From an uncultured Rhodospirillales bacterium (GTDB lineage Bacteria > Pseudomonadota > Alphaproteobacteria > Rhodospirillales > UBA2165): a stretch of 64,000 nucleotides of DNA. The notes beneath the pieces are model-generated. The model saw only the letters and a program-made list of their open reading frames with translations, did no database searches and had not been told where the DNA came from. Position 1 is the stretch's first letter. Every line of letters begins with the position of its first letter. Both the position numbers and the translations under genes were made by a program. The DNA lies in the NCBI GenBank assembly GCA_913055735.1, contig CAJXKD010000002.1:984150-1048149 (forward strand), read 5' to 3'. This document shows, piece by piece, positions 12,722 to 60,333 of this stretch.

Positions 12722-12823
12722 TTCTTCTTATATGGGGCCTCTGCCCACTCTTCGATCCCTATGCCTCCAGGCCCGGTTTGGCAAGCACTTCACAATACCA
12801 GCGAGACAACCACCAGGACGAAA

Positions 12824-13762
12824 CTAGCTTGGTGGAACAATCTGGTTATCAGGTAGATTAATCTGTTCGATTGTCTCGTTTCCGAATTTGTTGCGAATTC
12901 TGCCCAGGAACTCAGGTTCGACTGCGCGGATAAAACTTAAGTAGCCGACGAGATACTTTATTTCCTCTGGAGTGGCATTCCCGGTTCGAAATCGATGTAT
13001 CAATCCACGAACATAACGTTTCTGCCCTCTTCCAATGGATATGCCACCTTCGTTTGTTAAAACCAGGCCTGTCACTCTCATTCGCTTTTTTTTCGAAGAG
13101 TGGTGTGTTTTTTGATCGTTGATTTGAAGGTGCGGGTAGTCGAGATTCTCGGCTACATGTCGAACATGGTTAATCAGGCCACCAAGTTGATCAGGTAGAT
13201 TCGACGAAAAAGTCAGATCATCTGCATATCGAGAGTATCGAATTCCGAGTTGATTACATCGTTCGTGAATCAGCGTGTCAAAGACATACATTATCGTATT
13301 GGACACAACCGGTGAACTTGGCGCTCCGATTACCAATGATCCACGCTTGCATACTGCAGCGCATACAAAGGGAATTTCGTCAGCACTAAGGAGATCCGGA
13401 AGAAGGTGTAAATTATTGTTCAGAAGGCTTCTGATATCTGCTGCCGTGATTGACCTAAAGAATTCGGTAAAATCCATCTTTAATAGAAAACGCTGCCCCT
13501 GGTGAACACGAGCATTGTGATAGATATTGATGTTACTTCTGTAGGCAAACGCTGCTTCGTGAACGGGAAGCCTTCCGAAAATTTCTCTGGCCATCCATCT
13601 TTGGACTACTTTCAGTCGTCTCGACGGGTGTTCAATTTGGCGAACCCCACCATCCCTTTTTTCTATCGGATAAGATTTATAACGATGATTGGCTGCAAGT
13701 ACGGTCGCAGCTACAAAACCTTGGCTGAGGCCCAAATCCGCAGAAATTTTCTCAATAATCAT
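12824..13762 (-). CDS. retron-type reverse transcriptase (RNA-directed DNA polymerase)
   Basis: 312 aa, RT domain only. RT1 GGVRQIEHPSRRLKVVQ. Retron-typical NAxxH (YHNARVHQG). RT3 LKMDFTEFFRSI. RT4 GAPSSPVVSN. RT5 YSRYADDLTFS. RT7 NDQKT...RVTGLVL (retron VTG). Thumb-like tail LVGYLSFIRAVEPEF. ATG 13762 overlaps the upstream stop (ATGA). Confidence 0.9.
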   Translation of the reverse strand: MIIEKISADLGLSQGFVAATVLAANHRYKSYPIEKRDGGVRQIEHPSRRLKVVQRWMAREIFGRLPVHEAAFAYRSNINIYHNARVHQGQRFLLKMDFTEFFRSITAADIRSLLNNNLHLLPDLLSADEIPFVCAAVCKRGSLVIGAPSSPVVSNTIMYVFDTLIHERCNQLGIRYSRYADDLTFSSNLPDQLGGLINHVRHVAENLDYPHLQINDQKTHHSSKKKRMRVTGLVLTNEGGISIGRGQKRYVRGLIHRFRTGNATPEEIKYLVGYLSFIRAVEPEFLGRIRNKFGNETIEQINLPDNQIVPPS

Positions 13763-14661
13763 GCGTTTTGTGCCCTCAACTCTAACAGATGTGACGCATC
13801 TCTCTGATAGACGCTTAAAATTTTGGCCTTAATTTCGTCAGTTGAGATTCCCTCTATCTCGGCCAATGTAAAGTCGCTCACATTCGCGAAGAAAAGAGGC
13901 TCGTCCTCGCCTCTAGTTATATATTTCGCTGAGGCCAATACAGATACAATATAACGCACTTCGCTATAATTTGATTTTCCAAAAATATTCTTGAACAGAA
14001 TAGAAAGCTCAACCGGGTGAAGAATGGGAAAAACTGAAAATAAATGAATTGCGATATAAAATTTCTGCTTTAACCCAGCATTCTCAATTTCGTCTCCTTC
14101 TATTCGATAGCTCTTTTTGTGTCCCGCACTTCCAAGTACACCCTTTATTGGCTCAAAATCTGGTTCATTGCCGTCACAAACAACATATACGGTCTGACCA
14201 AATTGAGATTTTTGGTTGATTTTGTGTATTGGACCAAGATTTAGAAATGAAGGATCTGCCTGATGACCAATTTGATTTGCAACTAATGTTTTCGCGGAAA
14301 GATCATCAAACGCGGAAAAATATCCTACTTCCGCAAACGAGCCTGCGCTTTCAGGAAAAATGAGAACAAAATCAGCGACATCGCAGATAAATCTCTCAAG
14401 ATCAGAGATATTGATGAAATTGTGATCGCCGTCGGCACGAATATCCGAAAATGAACTTTCGGCTAAAAATATTTTGTAATCCGGCAAGTTTTCAGCCGAG
14501 TACTGAAGAAACGCACTTCGGTGGTTTTTCTCGTTCGTGGGTCCTCCGCAAACAAACAGTAGTTTGTGATCTCTGCGTATAAGTAATCTGCCAGAACGAA
14601 AAATTTGGGCCACTTCCTGCACAAGTGCTTGCCCTTGAGGCAATTGGAGAAAGTGGCCCAC
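13759..14661 (-). CDS. putative retron effector: N-terminal Rossmann/NDT (nucleoside deoxyribosyltransferase)-SLOG-like domain plus C-terminal winged-helix-like domain
   Basis: 300 aa with a GTG start at 14661 (AAGGGG 9 nt upstream). LLFVCGGP...VLIFPESAGSFAEVGYF resembles the glycine-rich loop and catalytic-Glu strand of NDT/SLOG-type folds. Its position immediately upstream of the RT, with coupling to it, mirrors type II retrons (Sen2/St85 order). Confidence 0.6.
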   Translation of the reverse strand: MGHFLQLPQGQALVQEVAQIFRSGRLLIRRDHKLLFVCGGPTNEKNHRSAFLQYSAENLPDYKIFLAESSFSDIRADGDHNFINISDLERFICDVADFVLIFPESAGSFAEVGYFSAFDDLSAKTLVANQIGHQADPSFLNLGPIHKINQKSQFGQTVYVVCDGNEPDFEPIKGVLGSAGHKKSYRIEGDEIENAGLKQKFYIAIHLFSVFPILHPVELSILFKNIFGKSNYSEVRYIVSVLASAKYITRGEDEPLFFANVSDFTLAEIEGISTDEIKAKILSVYQRDASHLLELRAQNA

Positions 14662-14885
14662 TTCAAGAACCCCTTACCTAACGCGAGGCGATATCTAAAG
14701 TCGCCTTGCAGAACTGCGAGGCGACTTTAGATATCGCCCGCAGCATGACGTTCAATTCCAAACGGCTTGGCTATAGCACCAAGCGCAAGACACTCAACAA
14801 CCGTGAGGTGTCCAACTAAGAGGCAGGCTACAACGGTTACCTACTCAAAGGAAGCTGTCAAGACGGCGACCAAAACTTTAGCGAA
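14662..14885 (-). ncRNA. candidate retron non-coding RNA (msr-msd) region
   Basis: A 314-nt gap lies upstream of the effector on the coding strand. It contains a perfect 19-bp inverted repeat (14687-14705 / 14720-14738, extendable by about 3-4 pairs into the loop). It also has two short hairpins (14765-14784 gcttgg/ccaagc; 14789-14812 gacac(c)tca/tgagtgtc). A third partial copy of the arm (ctaaagt[tttgg]tcgcc) lies at about 14865-14881. The a1/a2 repeats and the branching G could not be fixed by eye. Confidence 0.4.
14687..14738. repeat. perfect 19-bp inverted repeat (ggcgatatctaaagtcgcc / ggcgactttagatatcgcc), 14-nt spacer
   Basis: Read directly from the sequence. The spacer ttgcagaactgcga is itself partly self-complementary. 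No U/T-run follows on either strand, so it is not a classical intrinsic terminator. Confidence 0.95.
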
Positions 14886-14975
14886 CACGAGATTTCATTA
14901 AACCGCGCATAGATTGGGTGCGTTCTTTAGCTTTCGATACCTCTGCCTTCGGGCCAGATTTGGCATCCCACTTGC

Positions 14976-15368
14976 TCACAGGGTAAAAATACCACCTATG
15001 AAAATAAATAGGCCCCCGATGATAAACAGGCCGAGCGACGTCCACATTAACGATACGCTGAAAAAACAAATCCTCGGTTCTTTTAGGTTGAATCCGAATA
15101 TTTTCCCGGCGGGAGGGCTATACCCGTGGCTTTCATACTCAAGAGAACATAAACGCCGGAACCGATTGTGAATGACTGCACAAACCAGCCCAAGCTGAAA
15201 TGCCAAAAGCGCCCACAAAATCGACCAAGAAAGTGGGGCAAACTCCGATTTGCCGATAACGGTGGGCAAAAGAGCGAGAAGGGCAACAGCGCCACCGCCG
15301 TTCAAAAGCACCAATCCTTTGACAACATCGCTGTCAATTTGTGCGCGTATTTCCAATCCTTTTGTCAT
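14976..15368 (-). CDS. small integral membrane protein (about 3 TM), function unknown, within the AT-rich island
   Basis: 130 aa with hydrophobic stretches (GLVLLNGGGAVALLALLPTVI; LSWSILWALLAFQLGLVCAVI; ICFFSVSLMWTSLGLFIIGGLFIFIGGIF). Strong SD GGAGGA 8 nt upstream of ATG 15368. Same strand as the RT operon. Confidence 0.6.
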   Translation of the reverse strand: MTKGLEIRAQIDSDVVKGLVLLNGGGAVALLALLPTVIGKSEFAPLSWSILWALLAFQLGLVCAVIHNRFRRLCSLEYESHGYSPPAGKIFGFNLKEPRICFFSVSLMWTSLGLFIIGGLFIFIGGIFTL

Positions 15369-15519
15369 TGAGCAAATCCTCCATCCGGAAATTGAAGCTA
15401 CAAGGCGCCCAATAGCAGAAAAGGACTAGCCCAGACGGGCTTGATCCCTGTTAAAGCTTTTATTCTAAGGTTTGGATAGTTTAAGTCAGTACGCGGGATG
15501 AGCGCAAAGGCACGAGATA

Positions 15520-15945
15520 ATGCCGCCGATTAAACAAAAAATGCACCTAATCTTCGTCGGTGCTATTGCGATCTGGTTGGGCGTAACATCGATCCAAACC
15601 GCAGTGGCAGACGAGACGTTGAGCCGCGACGCGCTGACGGCGCTGTTCGCCAACAAAAGCATCGTTTATCCGTATAAAGAGTCAGACGAAAACGCCGTCG
15701 TCTTCATGGACCGGTTCGGCGGCACGGAGACCTACGTGCCGTGCGAGTTTTCCCACGGCACATGGTGGGTGAGCGAGGATGCGCGCCTGTGCTGGCAGGA
15801 CAGCCAAGAAAACAATATGGGCGATCCGGCGCCGCAGTGTTTCACGCCGCAGATGTCGGGAAGCGACATCGAACTCACCGATGCAAGCGGCGCGCTCGCC
15901 GTTGCCGGCAAGCTCATCGAAGGCAGCCGCATTCCCACCGGCTGA
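15520..15945 (+). CDS. secreted hypothetical protein (signal peptide; possibly DUF995-like)
   Basis: N-terminal signal sequence MHLIFVGAIAIWLGVTSIQTAVA|DE. Four Cys in a G-T-W-W-V...LCW...QCF pattern. No catalytic motif recognised. Confidence 0.6.
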   Translation: MPPIKQKMHLIFVGAIAIWLGVTSIQTAVADETLSRDALTALFANKSIVYPYKESDENAVVFMDRFGGTETYVPCEFSHGTWWVSEDARLCWQDSQENNMGDPAPQCFTPQMSGSDIELTDASGALAVAGKLIEGSRIPTG

Positions 15946-15982: not shown

Positions 15983-16462
15983 CTAGATCAACGCAAGAAG
16001 AAAACACACCAGCGCCGCTGCTGACGCCGCCGTGCGCACGTGGTTCCAGGCGGTCCAGCGGCGCAGATAGTCGGCCCACAATTCCTCGCCGGCGGCAGTG
16101 CCCACCTCGCTCGCCGCAAGGGCGTTGTTCATCGGTACATTGAAGATCACGGTTACCAGGAATCCCCCGACGATATAGAGGGTGCTACCCGCGAGCAGCC
16201 AGCCGCTGCCGGGCGCGCCCCAGGCGAACAAGCAATACACCGCGAGAACGGCACAGGCCGCGAGCGCGCCGAAAAAGATCACGAAGAAAAGAGGGTTCAG
16301 GATGGTGACGTTCATTGCCTTCATGGCAGTCATTCCCTCAGCCCGAGACAAACCACCGAGCGCCTGCATCACGCAACGGGAAAAGGCATAGAAAATTCCT
16401 GCCATTAACCCCGCGCCGAGGGCGGCAAGAACGATCACGATGGGAAGCCATTGTCCGCTCAT
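15983..16462 (-). CDS. DUF1772 (anthrone-oxygenase-like) membrane protein
   Basis: Four TM segments and the family-typical FNVPMNNALA...LWADYLRRWTAWNHVRT. Start set at ATG 16462 (MSGQW). Confidence 0.7.
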   Translation of the reverse strand: MSGQWLPIVIVLAALGAGLMAGIFYAFSRCVMQALGGLSRAEGMTAMKAMNVTILNPLFFVIFFGALAACAVLAVYCLFAWGAPGSGWLLAGSTLYIVGGFLVTVIFNVPMNNALAASEVGTAAGEELWADYLRRWTAWNHVRTAASAAALVCFLLALI

Positions 16463-16528
16463 GTGGCTATTTAATCCCAATCACCACAGACGGGCAAAGG
16501 CCTCTTGGAAGGCAAAATGTCGCGGAGA

Positions 16529-40168: not shown

Positions 40169-40537
40169 CTATTCCTTCTCGATCGTGCACTGCAGCGGAT
40201 GTTGGTGCTGTTGCGCCAGATCCATGGTTTGATTCACCTTCGTTTCAGCAACCTCGTAGGTATACACGCCGCAGATACCGACGCCCTTCTGGTGCACATG
40301 CAGCATGATGCGCGTCGCTTCTTCGTGGCTCTTGCTGAAAAACTGTTCCAATACATGGACAACGAATTCCATCGGGGTGTAGTCGTCATTCAGCATCAAG
40401 ACCTTGTACATCGAGGGCTTCTTGGTCTTGGCCCTACTTTTTACGACGACACCATTTTCCAGGTCGTCGTCCCCACCCGTTCTTTTATCGTCGTTTCGTT
40501 TCATAATCCTTGTTACGTCAGCTGAAATTTCCGGCAC
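40169..40537 (-). CDS. clpS: ATP-dependent Clp protease adaptor ClpS
   Basis: Core [27 protein letters not shown]....[12 protein letters not shown]...CGVYT.EVAETK is the ClpS signature. Start uncertain (GTG 40537 or ATG 40504). Confidence 0.92.
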
Positions 40538-40776
40538 CGAAGTTTTAGGCCATATTCCCTGGTCAATTTTCTAGACCAAAATTCGAGGCCAGGCTTTTCA
40601 CGAAGTCGCTGTCCAACTAATCAAAAAGAGTACCTGTAATATCCTAAAAGGCCAACCTATCCGGCTTCAAAATCAAAACATTCTACAGTTAAATATATTG
40701 ATTTTTCCCAACAGTGCAAAAGCCCAAAGGTTAACGTAATTGCCTGTAATTTCACGGCAATGGGCCGTTTTGAGCC

Positions 40777-41523
40777 CTACCGTAACCTGATCCGCGTGCG
40801 GTTCAGGCCATCGCTATCTACCTTAACCTCAAATAGATTTATGTGCTCTTGCGAATCATTCGTACCATATATGCTGAATTCGCTGGTCACACGGGGGGGA
40901 TTTACCGGGATTCCTGTTTTGTCCCAGGAGGCTAAAAGTCCCGGAAACGTAAGGGATTTGAACCGATCGCTAGGCCACAGGAAGGCATTAAATCGGTATT
41001 TTCCGTCATGGCAGGCGGAGAGAACCCAATAGAACTGGATAGAGGACATCCGAAGCCCCACCGGCGGAGGGCCGAAAACCCCATCTTTTTCGAGTGCTGC
41101 CCGCAATAAATCCAGCTGGGAATGGCCAAAGGGGATCCGGACCACCACCGGACGCCATGGCTTGAGGAGATCGGGCCTCCGGGCCTCCAGTTCGACATGG
41201 CTCAGATCGGCCGGCAAGGAGACGCTGGATACCATGGCATAGGCATCTCCGTCCCCTTCTTGGCGAATCTCATAGGATCTGACCTGCTCTATATAGACCC
41301 CATTATAGACCAGCCTATACCAATCGGAGGCCCCGGAAGCGCAGGCTTCCCTAATATCGTCTCCGTCCAGATAACCGAACCAGGTCAATTTCCGAAGGAT
41401 CGGATTGTCCGTCTCCTGGTGGTACGTACAACCCACAAGGAGCAAAAAAACCGCCGTAATTGGGGCTTTAATCGCCGCGCGGCGACCCCACATTAAGAGT
41501 TTATTGAGCGCAATCCGAGACAT
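40777..41523 (-). CDS. hypothetical lipoprotein
   Basis: 248 aa with lipobox LLLVGC|T after a signal-like segment. No motif recognised. Lies in a locally AT-richer stretch between clpS and the carboxypeptidase gene. Confidence 0.5.
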   Translation of the reverse strand: MSRIALNKLLMWGRRAAIKAPITAVFLLLVGCTYHQETDNPILRKLTWFGYLDGDDIREACASGASDWYRLVYNGVYIEQVRSYEIRQEGDGDAYAMVSSVSLPADLSHVELEARRPDLLKPWRPVVVRIPFGHSQLDLLRAALEKDGVFGPPPVGLRMSSIQFYWVLSACHDGKYRFNAFLWPSDRFKSLTFPGLLASWDKTGIPVNPPRVTSEFSIYGTNDSQEHINLFEVKVDSDGLNRTRIRLR

Positions 41524-41703
41524 TGATCACCTGCTGCTTCGCCCGCCCGGCGGACCGATTTCACGCCAGCTTCCGCGGCATTCGGGCACGCTGATATAGG
41601 AACGGCGACAGCGGATAGACAACGTGATCTTAATTCCCTACCTTCAAAATCAGGTTAGCGGATAATCCGGACTGTCGCAAAAGGGGCGAATGGAGGCCAA
41701 TTG

Positions 41704-42942
41704 ATGACGCGTGGGAACCGATCCCCTCTTGGGATGATCGCCCTTTTTGTGGGCACCATGATCGTCACGCTCTCTCTGGCGTCGCCCCTTCAGGCCAAAT
41801 ACGCCTCCTTCATTCTGGACGCGGACACGGGCGAAGTCCATCACTCGGTCAACGCGCAAACCAGGAACTATCCCGCCTCACTCACCAAAATGATGACCCT
41901 TTATCTGCTGTTCGAAGCCTTGGATACGGGTAAGGTCAATATGAACACACGGTTTGCCGTCTCGGCGCGTGCCGCACGGCAACCTGCATCTCACCTCGGG
42001 CTTCGGGCGGGACAATCGATTACGGTCGAGCAAGCCATTCTCGCGCTAATCGTCAAATCAGCAAACGATGTCGCCACGGTCGTCGCCGAGGCGCTGGGCG
42101 GCAGCGAACGCAAATTCGCGCTGGTGATGACCGCGACCGCCCGCAAGATCGGCATGGACCGAACGACCTTCCGCAATGCATCGGGGTTGCCGCATCGCGG
42201 ACAACTGTCGACAGCCGAAGATATGGCCGCGCTCGCCCGCGCGCTCCTCAATCGCTTCCCGCACTACTATCATTACTTCAGCCGCCCGACTTTCACCTAT
42301 AACGGACACACTTTCCGCACCCACAACAGGTTGTTGAAACGATATGGTGGCGTCGACGGTTTGAAGACGGGATATATCCGAGCGTCGGGCTTCAACATCG
42401 TGACATCGATCCGCCGCAACGGACAACGTCTTATCGGCGTCGTGTTCGGCGGTAAGACGGCACGCAAACGCGATTACCATATGGTGGCTCTGTTCGACAA
42501 AGTGTTCCTCGAACAGCGCCGTGCCCGCGCCGCCGCGCAGTTGGCAGCTGCGAATATCCGCCCCGGACAGAAACCGGAGGTGGTCGCGGAGACGAAACCC
42601 GCCCCCCGCCGGCAAGTACGGCAGGTAGCGTCGGCAACGCCGACGAACTCCTCGGGCTCGGTTTGGGGTATCCAGGTCGGCGCCTATTACAAGAAAGAGC
42701 CGGCTCTCGCCGCTGCCTACAAGGCCCTCAATCAGTTGGGAACTTTGGCCGACGGCGGCGAGGTGACTGTTATGCCGCTCAAAAAGTCCCGCGGACGGGT
42801 TCTCTATCGCGCCCGGATCATCGGCTTGGGACGGCGTGACGTCTATCGTGCCTGCCGGCTCCTGAAGCGCCAGAAGACCGGGTGCCTGGAATTGAGGTTG
42901 CCACCCGACGTGGAATTCGCCTCCACCGGCTCGTCTTCCTGA
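41704..42942 (+). CDS. D-alanyl-D-alanine carboxypeptidase (S11, PBP5/6-like) with C-terminal SPOR domain
   Basis: SxxK active site (YPASLTKMMT), SxN (VKSAND) and KTG (LKTGY). The C-terminal ~80 aa are SPOR-like (WGIQVGAY....A......L........V.........YRARI.GL....A..AC..L). GGAGG lies 8 nt upstream of ATG 41704. Confidence 0.85.
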   Translation: MTRGNRSPLGMIALFVGTMIVTLSLASPLQAKYASFILDADTGEVHHSVNAQTRNYPASLTKMMTLYLLFEALDTGKVNMNTRFAVSARAARQPASHLGLRAGQSITVEQAILALIVKSANDVATVVAEALGGSERKFALVMTATARKIGMDRTTFRNASGLPHRGQLSTAEDMAALARALLNRFPHYYHYFSRPTFTYNGHTFRTHNRLLKRYGGVDGLKTGYIRASGFNIVTSIRRNGQRLIGVVFGGKTARKRDYHMVALFDKVFLEQRRARAAAQLAAANIRPGQKPEVVAETKPAPRRQVRQVASATPTNSSGSVWGIQVGAYYKKEPALAAAYKALNQLGTLADGGEVTVMPLKKSRGRVLYRARIIGLGRRDVYRACRLLKRQKTGCLELRLPPDVEFASTGSSS

Positions 42943-58473: not shown

Positions 58474-58713
58474 TTATTCGAAACCGCTGAGCTTTAGGCC
58501 TTCGACGACGAACCCTTCGGCGGTCGGCCAACGGTCCTCGATCATATCCCAGGCTTCTTTTTCGTTGTGCGCGACAACATCCTGGATTTGAACATCCGCC
58601 CAGTGATCGCCGTAGACTGCATGGCTGCGATTATCCTTCACGGCGGCGCGGACTTCTCGGTTATAGACGGCGACTTCAAAGGCCTTCTTTTCCCGACTGT
58701 TGTATTGAAGCAT
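58474..58713 (-). CDS. small hypothetical protein, paralogue A (79 aa)
   Basis: FEVAVYNREVRAAV...HWADVQIQDVVAHNEKEAWDMIEDRWPTAEGFVVEGL aligns by eye with the 70-aa ORF at 58899..59111, and a substantial fraction of positions is identical. Confidence 0.6.
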   Translation of the reverse strand: MLQYNSREKKAFEVAVYNREVRAAVKDNRSHAVYGDHWADVQIQDVVAHNEKEAWDMIEDRWPTAEGFVVEGLKLSGFE

Positions 58714-58898
58714 CCCAGCAATTTCCCTGACGTGTTACCTGATAAACGGGTCCTTCGGTCAGCTTGGCGTGCACCGCCAAACCCCGCCTAAAACCCTAGG
58801 AAGGTAAGATTAAAATTGCTTGAACCCTGAGCAATATTGGGAAGATTTAAGGGAGAAATCCGGGGAGAAACAGGCTTCTCGGAGGAACGCCGAGATCG

Positions 58899-59111
58899 TT
58901 AAAACTTCGATTCCTCAACTGAATCGATAACGTAGCCTTGTTGGGGCGGATATTTGCGGGAAACCTGGGCCCGTGCCTCAGATTCGCTGTCGGCCACGAT
59001 TTCTAAATAGTGAAGATCCGCCCATTCATCGGAGAGATTGCGGTGGCGCTCCCCCCCTTCGACGCATTCACGGACTTCCTTATTATAAATTGCCACTTCA
59101 AAATCCGGCAT
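58899..59111 (-). CDS. small hypothetical protein, paralogue B (70 aa)
   Basis: MPDFEVAIYNKEVRECV...EWADLHYLEIVADSESEARAQVSRKYPPQQGYVIDSV. Same strand, 36 nt downstream of the Hpt gene. Confidence 0.6.
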   Translation of the reverse strand: MPDFEVAIYNKEVRECVEGGERHRNLSDEWADLHYLEIVADSESEARAQVSRKYPPQQGYVIDSVEESKF

Positions 59112-59147
59112 GCCGCCCCTCCTTAAGCACGAAATCAGGCACTTCCA

Positions 59148-59642
59148 CTAATCTTGACCGCTGCTCCGTTTAGCAATCACCTTTTCGAGACCGGAAAGGA
59201 GGTTGCTGCCGACGTCGCCGCCGTCGCCTTTGAGGTCCTGGGCAATCACGACCTGCAGAGCGTCGACGTGCAACGCAATAACCTCTATGTCGGCAGGCTT
59301 AACATTGCCTTTAAGTTCTTCGATAAAATTGCAGAGCTGACGGCTGATGGTGGTGATCAAGTCGTATTTGAAGCTACCGCCCTGCCCTTTGATGTCATGG
59401 GTCATGCGATAGATATTGTCGAGCGTCGCAGCATCGCCGCCGTTCGATTTCAGCGCCTCGAGTTCCTTATGAAGGTTGGCCACGTCTTCGTGAACCATGT
59501 CGACGAAACTGCCGGCCATGTCCAAGATGACTTTTTCGGCACGCGCCAACGCTGCCTGATCGACAGACCCGGGCCCCCCGACCGAAACCTTGTTTCTTAT
59601 ATCGGTGGGTGGCCTTATGAAGACGCCATCATCACCACTCAT
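59148..59642 (-). CDS. Hpt (histidine phosphotransfer) domain protein
   Basis: MTHDIKGQGGSFKYDLI is the H-D-[IL]-K-G phospho-His motif of Hpt domains, and the surrounding sequence is helical. 164 aa. Confidence 0.75.
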   Translation of the reverse strand: MSGDDGVFIRPPTDIRNKVSVGGPGSVDQAALARAEKVILDMAGSFVDMVHEDVANLHKELEALKSNGGDAATLDNIYRMTHDIKGQGGSFKYDLITTISRQLCNFIEELKGNVKPADIEVIALHVDALQVVIAQDLKGDGGDVGSNLLSGLEKVIAKRSSGQD

Positions 59643-59733
59643 CGGTGCCGTTCCTTTTTTCGGAACACGCTATTAATTTCGCATTCCCAAGACTCTGCCT
59701 CCGGCATGCCCTCGCATGTCTTCGGAGACATGA

Positions 59734-60333
59734 TCATCCATTCATCAACGCTTCGACTTCTGCCTGCGACAGCTCGCCGCCTTCTCCACCTTCCGACGGT
59801 TCGGCCTCAGCGGCATCGACAACTTTCTTTTGTGCGTTTTTGCGGCGCTCGGGTCCGCGATAGTCGATCTGTTGCCGCCGCCGGTCAGGACCGAAGTAAG
59901 TCTTGGTCCGGACGAACTCACGCGGGCGTTCGATGATCGATCTAATGCGCGAATAAAGCGACTTCGCAGAAATCGGTTTCGCGAGGAACTCATGCACACC
60001 GGAATCACGCGCTTCCATCACCTTGGTCATTTCCGTGTGGCCGGTCAGCATGATGATCGGCACATACGGATTCGGGCTGTCCGAGCCGGTGCGCACCAGC
60101 TTGACGAAATCGAGCCCGTCCAAGGGCTGCATGTTCCAATCGCAGATAATGATGTCGGCGGGGAAATGCCGAAGCTCTTTGAAAGCCTCGGCGCCGTCCG
60201 CCGCCTCGTGAACGCTTTTCGATCCGAGTGCGTGCAAGATCGTCTTCACCAACGCGCGCATATGCTTGTTGTCGTCGACGATCAAGAAGTTGATACGTTC
60301 GAGGTTGTAACTTTTCTTCGGATCCGCGTCCAT
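59734..60333 (-). CDS. response regulator (receiver domain) with Arg-rich C-terminal tail
   Basis: INFLIVDDN...ADIIICDWNMQPLDG (phospho-acceptor Asp)...PIIMLTG...FLAKP. Tail YFGPDRRRQQIDYRGPERRK. No recognisable output domain. Start at ATG 60333 (GTG 60348 possible). Confidence 0.85.
   Translation of the reverse strand: MDADPKKSYNLERINFLIVDDNKHMRALVKTILHALGSKSVHEAADGAEAFKELRHFPADIIICDWNMQPLDGLDFVKLVRTGSDSPNPYVPIIMLTGHTEMTKVMEARDSGVHEFLAKPISAKSLYSRIRSIIERPREFVRTKTYFGPDRRRQQIDYRGPERRKNAQKKVVDAAEAEPSEGGEGGELSQAEVEALMNG

Follow-up and report, generated by a model that had tools for sequence, protein, structure and literature searches.

In the window, i.e. the whole stretch of 64,000 nucleotides that was analyzed, a non-coding RNA (ncRNA), an effector gene and a reverse transcriptase (RT) gene follow one another on the reverse strand. 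The effector gene (13759-14661) encodes a protein of 300 aa and the RT gene (12824-13762) a protein of 312 aa. The RT start codon overlaps the effector stop codon by 4 nt (ATGA at 13762-13759). The ncRNA, comprising the msr and msd parts of a retron, spans 156 nt from a1 to a2 (14669-14824) and was delimited by folding, covariation and a covariance model. Both the order ncRNA-effector-RT and the 4-nt overlap are shared with the closest relative, termed L001 in the following. The initial annotation of this DNA had described the two ORFs and their overlap exactly in this way, together with the RT motifs, the lack of an extension domain in the RT, an AT-richer block and a horizontal origin, all of which were recovered here. 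Its view of the locus as a type II retron like Sen2/St85 agrees with the curated models, the PADLOC models and the covariance model.

The RT was assigned to the St85 family (type II-A1, RT clade 1) by profile scores. With the NCBIfam model NF038233 (retron_St85_RT) it reaches 319 bits at a cut-off of 235. Best among the PADLOC models is RT_II-A (PDLC02939; 358 bits, 8.6e-108), which aligns with residues 1-301 of the RT over a profile of 304 positions, followed by RT_I-A with 291 bits, and retron RT models account for 25 of the 25 PADLOC matches listed. This comparison with PADLOC and retron RT models had been proposed initially, as had the structural search described below. The NAxxH motif occurs as NARVH (residues 83-87), followed by YADD (179-182) and by RVTGLVL (229-235) with the VTG triplet at 230-232. 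An alignment of 32 homologs shows no variation at residues A84, H87, Y179, D181, D182 and G232. RVT_1 is the sole Pfam match over the 312 aa, and neither a maturase/endonuclease domain nor any other additional domain was detected in this Pfam search. Among solved structures, the nearest RT is that of 22et, a “Retron” entry, followed by Ec78/Eco7 and Ec83 and then by Ec86; of the named RTs, Ec78 and Ec83 are thus nearer than Ec86. Placement by HMM and PDB scores would put the RT in clade 1, as in types I-A and II-A1. The closest public relative shows 59% identity and most members of the St85 family about 45%. Related loci were retrieved with the RT alignment as query, whereas a single RT sequence gave no matches.

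The 300-aa protein is predicted to be an RcaT-like toxin with an NDT-like N-glycosidase domain at the N-terminus and a second domain at the C-terminus. Its start codon is ambiguous: translation may begin at GTG 14661 (300 aa) or at GTG 14622 (287 aa), which is used in some public gene calls. According to the initial annotation the effector could be placed only at the level of its fold; a family assignment was nevertheless obtained by sequence profiles. The NCBIfam model NF038232 (STM3845_fam, “retron St85 family effector”) matches with 143 bits at a cut-off of 100, and PADLOC NDT_II-A with 2.2e-40, whereby residues 15-287 correspond to profile positions 4-270 of 279. In the precomputed annotation, PF28093 is carried by all effector homologs among the matches listed, and a HyaE match in a local Pfam copy was rejected as spurious and below threshold. 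The AlphaFold2 model of the protein has a pLDDT of 92.4. A Foldseek search with this model returned the Ec86/Eco1 effector at the top (7xjg_J, 8qbl_E and 8qbk_E), aligned at full length over 304-311 columns with E values of about 1e-11. The next ranks are taken by MilB, DNPH1 and NDTs, which the N-terminal domain resembles. In the structural alignment the two effectors share only 19% identity. Residue E111, which is invariant in 47 homologs, is aligned with the catalytic E106 of Eco1. The closest public relative of the effector shows 66% identity, most St85-family homologs about 30-35%, and the St85-family effectors found in phage and plasmid collections are all distant, with about 30% identity. 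Profiles and model together identify the protein as the canonical NDT-like effector of the St85 family.

Upstream of the effector gene, the initial annotation had noted 314 nt with strong secondary structure. As a whole this region (14662-14975) folds better than 100 of 100 shuffled sequences (z = -3.9). However, the structured signal is confined to the proximal 156 nt (14669-14824; z = -8.15, none of 200 shuffled sequences as good). The distal 151 nt (14825-14975) fold no better than random (z = +0.61) and are not conserved in L001, so the earlier statement holds for the proximal part only. The ncRNA on the reverse strand begins with the inverted repeat a1 GCCUCUUA (14817-14824), which pairs with a2 UAAGGGGU (14669-14676). 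Directly 3' of a1 lies the predicted branching guanosine (14816), which would provide the priming 2'-OH if the known retron mechanism applies (PMC11701397). It is followed by msr stem-loop 1 (14788-14813, predicted fold), a variable element in which the upper stem has changed in sequence between the window and L001 while the pairing is retained. Stem-loop 2 of the msr (14765-14784) carries in its loop the family-conserved motif GGUG(N)UAUAGCC, which across the family lies upstream of the effector gene at a constant distance. The msd hairpin (14682-14742), the predicted template for the msDNA stem, was defined by its fold and by compensatory changes against L001. Its arms of 25 nt are 96% complementary and contain two GATATC palindromes, and the complementary DNA strand of 14677-14763 folds with z = -9.3. 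A long hairpin of differing sequence was found at the msd position in all relatives.

Comparison with other loci gave further evidence for the ncRNA. It is 90% identical to that of L001, with five compensatory pairs in the msd stem. Searches with a covariance model of these two sequences (window and L001) gave full-length matches just upstream of the effector gene in nine further II-A loci and in an annotated E. coli locus of the St85 family (E 9e-12). With default filters cmsearch missed four loci, which were recovered with the filters off. Since the alignment to the covariance model misplaces a1 and a2 in distant members, these repeats were set by direct search and constrained folding. Their sequences vary by locus yet always pair, for example GUCUCUUA/UAAGAGAC in locus L004 and GCUUUUUAC/GUAAAAAGC in locus L011. 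In 10 of the 10 loci compared, a1 and a2 covary and a G directly follows a1. Rfam contained nothing meaningful for this region at E values up to 10, and at gathering scores no family was matched anywhere in the window.

Upstream of a1, the only blocks conserved with L001 are two promoter-like boxes on the reverse strand (14833-14861), namely TTGACA at 14861-14856 and TAGGTAACCGT at 14843-14833. They were not called in a scan for consensus sigma-70 promoters because their spacing is 12-13 nt, and they may serve as a promoter. At the other end of the ncRNA, the purine-rich part of a2 lies where the Shine-Dalgarno sequence of the effector gene is expected, 7 nt before GTG 14661. In a divergent subclade (the window, L001, L009 and L004) the effector has a non-AUG start codon 4-8 nt after a2, and on this ground the purine-rich half of a2 might itself act as Shine-Dalgarno sequence. 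Folding or processing of the ncRNA could in that case control whether the toxin and the coupled RT are translated. Independently of this, the GATATC palindromes that pair in the msd stem could enable the msDNA to sense phage methylases of the Dam or EcoRV-like kind. Taken together we regard these two ideas as unlikely; if true, ncRNA-gated translation of toxin and RT would be an additional regulatory layer which is not described for retrons.

Type II-A1 was defined by Mestre et al. (2020; PMC7736814). Its effectors (cluster 42_2) combine an NDT-like domain at the N-terminus with a DNA-binding domain at the C-terminus, and the type has RT clade 1 and ncRNA type IA/IIA1 in common with type I-A (PMC7736814). 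In the window, the general hallmarks of retrons are present with the RT motifs and with an msr and msd enclosed by a1 and a2 with a G after a1. On the effector side, an NDT-like domain and the full-length fold of the Ec86 effector were found, in which DNA binding by the C-terminal domain is only putative. The ncRNA was assigned to the type by covariance matches and by its layout. As described for Vmi1 and Sen2 (PMC11701397), it consists of the repeats a1/a2, a predicted branching G directly following a1, two stem-loops in the msr and a single long hairpin in the msd. Sen2/St85 and its type II-A1 relatives Vmi1/Vm85, Vch2/Vc81 and Eco3/Ec73 show the same order of msr-msd, effector and RT, and both proteins of the window pass the curated St85 models. 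We conclude that the module is very probably an intact type II-A1 retron of the Sen2/St85 family, with its ncRNA at 14824-14669, its effector at 14661-13759 and its RT at 13762-12824. The undescribed variant that had been expected initially was not found, as the effector is canonical for the St85 family and the module agrees with type II-A1 in every point that could be tested. It is an ordinary instance of a well-studied anti-phage family.

Several features separate the module from Sen2/St85 itself. Both proteins are distant, as seen from the identities of their best public relatives (59% for the RT, 66% for the effector), and the host is an uncultured bacterium with about 60% GC and not an enterobacterium or vibrio. 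The effector start codon is situated 7 nt after a2. In addition, the retron occupies a slot swapped by recombination instead of a prophage or dusA island, with no integrase or tRNA gene near.

The promoter-like boxes deviate from consensus and the effector starts with GTG, which might indicate a decayed or silent remnant that has lost msDNA production and phage defence. Such decay is unlikely, since both ORFs are full length against the family profiles (RT 1-301 of 304, effector profile 4-270 of 279), all catalytic and retron-specific residues are intact, and the ncRNA has almost perfect stems that show covariation with the nearest relative.

The retron lies in a strain-variable segment of 2.8 kb (12788-15605), the junctions of which were determined by alignment to the sister strain L094. 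With a GC content of 0.447, compared to 0.621 and 0.603 in its flanks, this segment forms the lowest GC trough of the whole window. In the syntenic sister strains L095 and L096 the retron is replaced by PD-Lambda-5. Effector ORF and RT are absent together from the syntenic sister strains, which argues against an upstream ORF with a housekeeping function, as had been considered initially. No tRNA gene was detected in the window, and the Pfam-annotated gene calls surrounding the island include no integrase. The left junction is located inside the 5' end of orf141; this favours replacement by homologous recombination over site-specific integration. From the low GC content and the absence from sister strains, the retron is horizontally acquired and resides in a small strain-variable defence slot.

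The same segment contains a gene on the reverse strand for a membrane protein of 130 aa with three TM helices (14976-15368). It is located directly upstream of the ncRNA on the same strand, belongs to no known family and might be a second, membrane effector beside the NDT-like protein, which would make the module a new retron variant. This is very unlikely and the protein was rejected as a retron component: its homologs (up to 75% identity) lack an RT or STM3845 gene in three of three neighbourhoods examined, its gene is set apart from the ncRNA by the promoter-like boxes and by about 115 nt that are neither conserved nor structured, and type II-A1 retrons are complete without it (PMC7736814). 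The gene is considered unrelated to the retron. That the RT stems from another system (type I-A retron, DRT/UG, Abi or group II intron) with an unrelated upstream ORF is extremely improbable despite the high RT_I-A score and the nearness of the type I-A structures Ec78 and Ec83, as types I-A and II-A1 share RT clade and ncRNA type by definition, the partner gene is NDT-like, no ORF for a PtuA-like ATPase or PtuB-like HNH protein was found in 12.7-15.6 kb, and group II intron and DRT models, named initially among the alternative clades, stay far below their cut-offs (TIGR04416 38 against 300, Drt2 37/390, Drt3a 29/200, Drt4 15/450).

The toxin/antitoxin system of Sen2 has three components (bioRxiv 10.1101/2020.06.22.160168). 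Eco1 assembles into a filament with NAD(P)+-hydrolysing activity, for which a phage methylase is the trigger (PMC12673091). By analogy to these two systems, the ncRNA of the intact type II-A1 retron would fold with a1 paired to a2, and the RT would prime from the 2'-OH of G14816 and copy the msd hairpin into a branched msDNA. Its length is estimated at 70-90 nt, the same range as the 85-nt msDNA of the Sen2/St85 group. The RT-msDNA complex would bind the effector and hold it inactive, acting as antitoxin. If a phage factor then modifies, degrades or sequesters the msDNA, the effector may be freed, and its N-glycosidase activity (NAD(P)+ hydrolysis in Eco1) would arrest growth of the infected cell, i.e. 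abortive infection. NAD(P)+ hydrolysis by the effector of the window would be an extrapolation from type II-A3, because for Sen2-type effectors the literature consulted gives no established substrate. By the same analogy, the module probably produces msDNA and defends against phages; the slot shared with PD-Lambda-5 in sister strains supports a role in phage defence as genomic context.

Eco1/Ec86 (type II-A3; 7xjg, 8qbk-m) has the same two-domain effector fold with the catalytic Glu kept and the same tripartite logic. In contrast, its RT belongs to a different clade (113 bits for the Ec86 RT, about 195-204 for clade-1 RTs). The effector identity is only 19%. Filament formation and a Dcm trigger cannot be assumed for the window, the msd of which contains no CCWGG or GATC site. 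Among named RTs of solved structure, those of Eco7 (Ec78) and Eco4 (Ec83), both of type I-A, come closest (E 1e-49 to 1e-57). The two systems share RT clade 1 and ncRNA type IA/IIA1 with the window, whereas their effectors, a PtuA ATPase and a PtuB HNH nuclease, are both missing from the module.

The current understanding of retrons is unchanged by this module. It adds one intact type II-A1 retron, the ncRNA of which has clear boundaries, in an uncultured bacterium of high GC content. The module could be of use as a divergent case in which to test Sen2-type biology or, with its msd stem of 25 bp, as a chassis for retron editing. The exchange of the retron and PD-Lambda-5 in one chromosomal slot of near-identical strains clearly illustrates, on a small scale, a defence hot spot.

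The module on the minus strand of the window was confirmed as a type II-A1 retron, in which every testable feature of this type was found. Both proteins belong to the respective families and have intact catalytic residues, the non-coding RNA (ncRNA) is canonical and covarying, and the module is located in a defence island. The retron interpretation of the initial annotation was therefore upheld and narrowed. The features that define type I-A retrons, group II introns or DRTs were not found in the module.

The reverse transcriptase (RT) ORF (12824-13762, minus strand, 312 aa) follows an effector ORF of 300 aa (13759-14661, minus strand), which begins with GTG. The start codon of the RT overlaps the effector stop codon in an ATGA at 13762-13759, exactly as initially annotated. 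The previously listed RT motifs were all found, namely NARVH (residues 83-87), YADD (179-182) and RVTGLVL (229-235), and no variation was seen at their key residues when 32 homologs were aligned. RVT_1 is the sole Pfam domain of the protein, in agreement with the described lack of further domains. Curated NCBIfam models for group II introns and DRTs scored far below their cut-offs against the RT. It passes the NCBIfam model retron_St85_RT (319 bits, cut-off 235), and the top PADLOC model is RT_II-A (PDLC02939; 8.6e-108, 358 bits), which matches end to end and is followed by RT_I-A with 291 bits. The nearest solved RT structures are 22et, a retron entry, and those of Ec78/Eco7 and Ec83, which are retrons of type I-A; the RT of Ec86 is clearly more distant. 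Type II-A1 shares RT clade 1 and the ncRNA type with type I-A (Mestre et al., PMC7736814). Exactly this pattern is given for II-A1 in that study.

The effector had been regarded as not placeable beyond the fold level. Profile and structure searches, which had been suggested for this protein, identified it as a St85-family effector. It passes the NCBIfam model STM3845_fam ("retron St85 family effector protein"; 143 bits, cut-off 100) and is matched by PADLOC NDT_II-A (2.2e-40), and PF28093 is present in all listed effector homologs. A confident AlphaFold2 model was built from 47 homologs (pLDDT 92.4, pTM 0.89). Its three significant PDB matches are all the Ec86/Eco1 effector (304-311 columns, E 2e-11 to 1e-10, TM 0.54-0.57); below these rank MilB, BcmB and DNPH1, which are N-glycosidases of the NDT fold. 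E111 aligns with E106 of Eco1, the Glu mutated (E106A) in the inactive filament 8qbl, and is invariant across the effector family alignment.

The 314-nt region upstream of the effector, initially described as strongly structured, folds better than shuffled sequences (z = -3.9), but the signal is restricted to 14669-14824 (z = -8.15) and the distal part, 14825-14975, is random-like (z = +0.61). The closest relative is the II-A locus L001 (assembly GCA_964504425.1; RT 59%, effector 66% identical), whose upstream region can be aligned with the window only from a TTGACA box onward. Judged from sequence, both regions are predicted to fold as a canonical retron ncRNA. On the minus strand of the window, a1 (14824-14817, GCCUCUUA) is immediately followed by the predicted branching G at 14816. 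The first msr stem-loop (14813-14788) varies in sequence and the second (14784-14765) carries a GGUG(N)UAUAGCC motif in its loop. The msd hairpin (14742-14682) has arms of 25 nt with 96% complementarity and is followed by a2 (14676-14669, UAAGGGGU). Strong folding was also predicted for the DNA strand complementary to 14677-14763 (z = -9.3). The length of the msDNA can only be estimated at about 70-90 nt, because the sequence does not define how far the template extends on its 5' side. Two GATATC palindromes occur in the msd stem of the window (14682-14742, minus strand) and four in that of L001; GATC and CCWGG sites are absent from the stem in the window. Speculatively, this may have a bearing on the range of phage methylases capable of modifying the msDNA.

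Compensatory double changes between the window and L001 were seen at five base pairs in the msd stem. A covariance model made from this pair, run with filters off, gave full-length matches directly upstream of the effector gene in 9 further II-A loci (E 7e-19 to 4e-5). A further match of this kind was obtained in an E. coli locus annotated as "retron St85 family" on plasmid NZ_CP019246.1 (E 9e-12). The sequences of a1 and a2 vary with their complementarity kept in 10 of 10 loci, all ten have a G immediately 3' of a1, and a long hairpin of unrelated sequence fills the msd position in the ten loci compared. This layout agrees with msDNA-Vmi1 and Sen2, for which two RNA stem-loops, a DNA of 85 nt and a branching G close to the 5' end have been reported (PMC11701397). 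In more distant II-A loci a T-run or separate hairpin follows a2 (L029 2061-2071; L030 2070-2080; directly after a2 in L007 and L010). There, the a1/a2 stem with the U-tract resembles an intrinsic terminator between ncRNA and effector; such an element is absent in the subclade of the window.

Only 4-8 nt separate a2 from the start codon of the effector in the four closest loci (window 14661-14676, minus strand; L001 303-319; L009 2083-2101; L004 2063-2077). None of these start codons is AUG: the window and L004 use GTG, L001 and L009 use TTG. The expected Shine-Dalgarno position is thus taken by UAAGGGG, the purine-rich half of a2. Therefore, it is conceivable that folding of the ncRNA might gate translation of toxin and RT.

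By analogy to characterised retrons, the RT would prime from the 2'-OH of G14816 and copy the msd, resulting in branched msDNA. RT-msDNA would then bind and neutralise the effector, as described for RcaT of Sen2 (bioRxiv 10.1101/2020.06.22.160168), and phage factors altering the msDNA would release the effector. The Eco1 effector is an N-glycosidase which hydrolyses NAD(P)+ (PMC12673091), and the effector of the window may act in a similar way. The suggestion of an undescribed variant was not borne out: in comparison with characterised II-A1 members the sequences are considerably diverged, but architecture, domains and RNA are all standard.

Directly upstream of the module, within the same low-GC segment, an ORF of 130 aa (14976-15368, minus strand) encodes a protein with three predicted TM segments, for which no Pfam, NCBIfam or PADLOC family was found and whose own family is uncharacterised. 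It is matched by 62 proteins (its own entry included) from diverse Proteobacteria, the nearest with at most 75% identity. It was rejected as a retron component, since no retron lies near its homologs in the three neighbourhoods examined. At L086 and L087 the homolog precedes other unknown small genes.

The GC content is 0.39-0.49 over 12.75-15.5 kb compared to 0.60-0.66 outside. The delimited segment, 12788-15605, has a GC content of 0.447 with flanks of 0.621 and 0.603 and is the deepest trough within the window, in line with the AT-rich block noted initially. Two milder dips were observed at 40500-42000 (0.525) and 58500-60000 (0.539), compared to about 0.60. Contigs of near-identical sister strains (L094, L095 and L096) are collinear with the window on both sides of the slot, and the MetE-like protein of L094 is 99.7% identical to that of the window. 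Between orf141 and the MFS transporter they carry different low-GC cargo, which PADLOC identified as PD-Lambda-5; its A protein has 441/453 aa, and the B protein is a methyltransferase of the D12 class (L094 2412-4625; L095 4700-6877; L096 2146-4323, equivalent to 12788-15605 of the window). The slot is bounded at about 12788 on the right and at about 15605 on the left, where the junction falls within the 5' end of orf141. This secreted-looking protein (15520-15945, plus strand) has no family match and is kept in L094 at 88% identity except for its 21 N-terminal, signal-like residues, where the variable segment starts. An Anthrone_oxy/DUF1772 gene with host-like GC content (15983-16480, minus strand), located between orf141 and the MetE-like gene, is absent from all three sister contigs and represents a second strain difference beside the island. 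The window contains no tRNA, and the annotated genes on either side of the island include no integrase. The presence of PD-Lambda-5 in the same slot makes this site a small defence hot spot. Considering the alternative cargo, the junctions and the lack of tRNA and integrase, the retron is therefore a strain-variable cargo of this hot spot, and recombination in the flanking regions is the probable route of its exchange.
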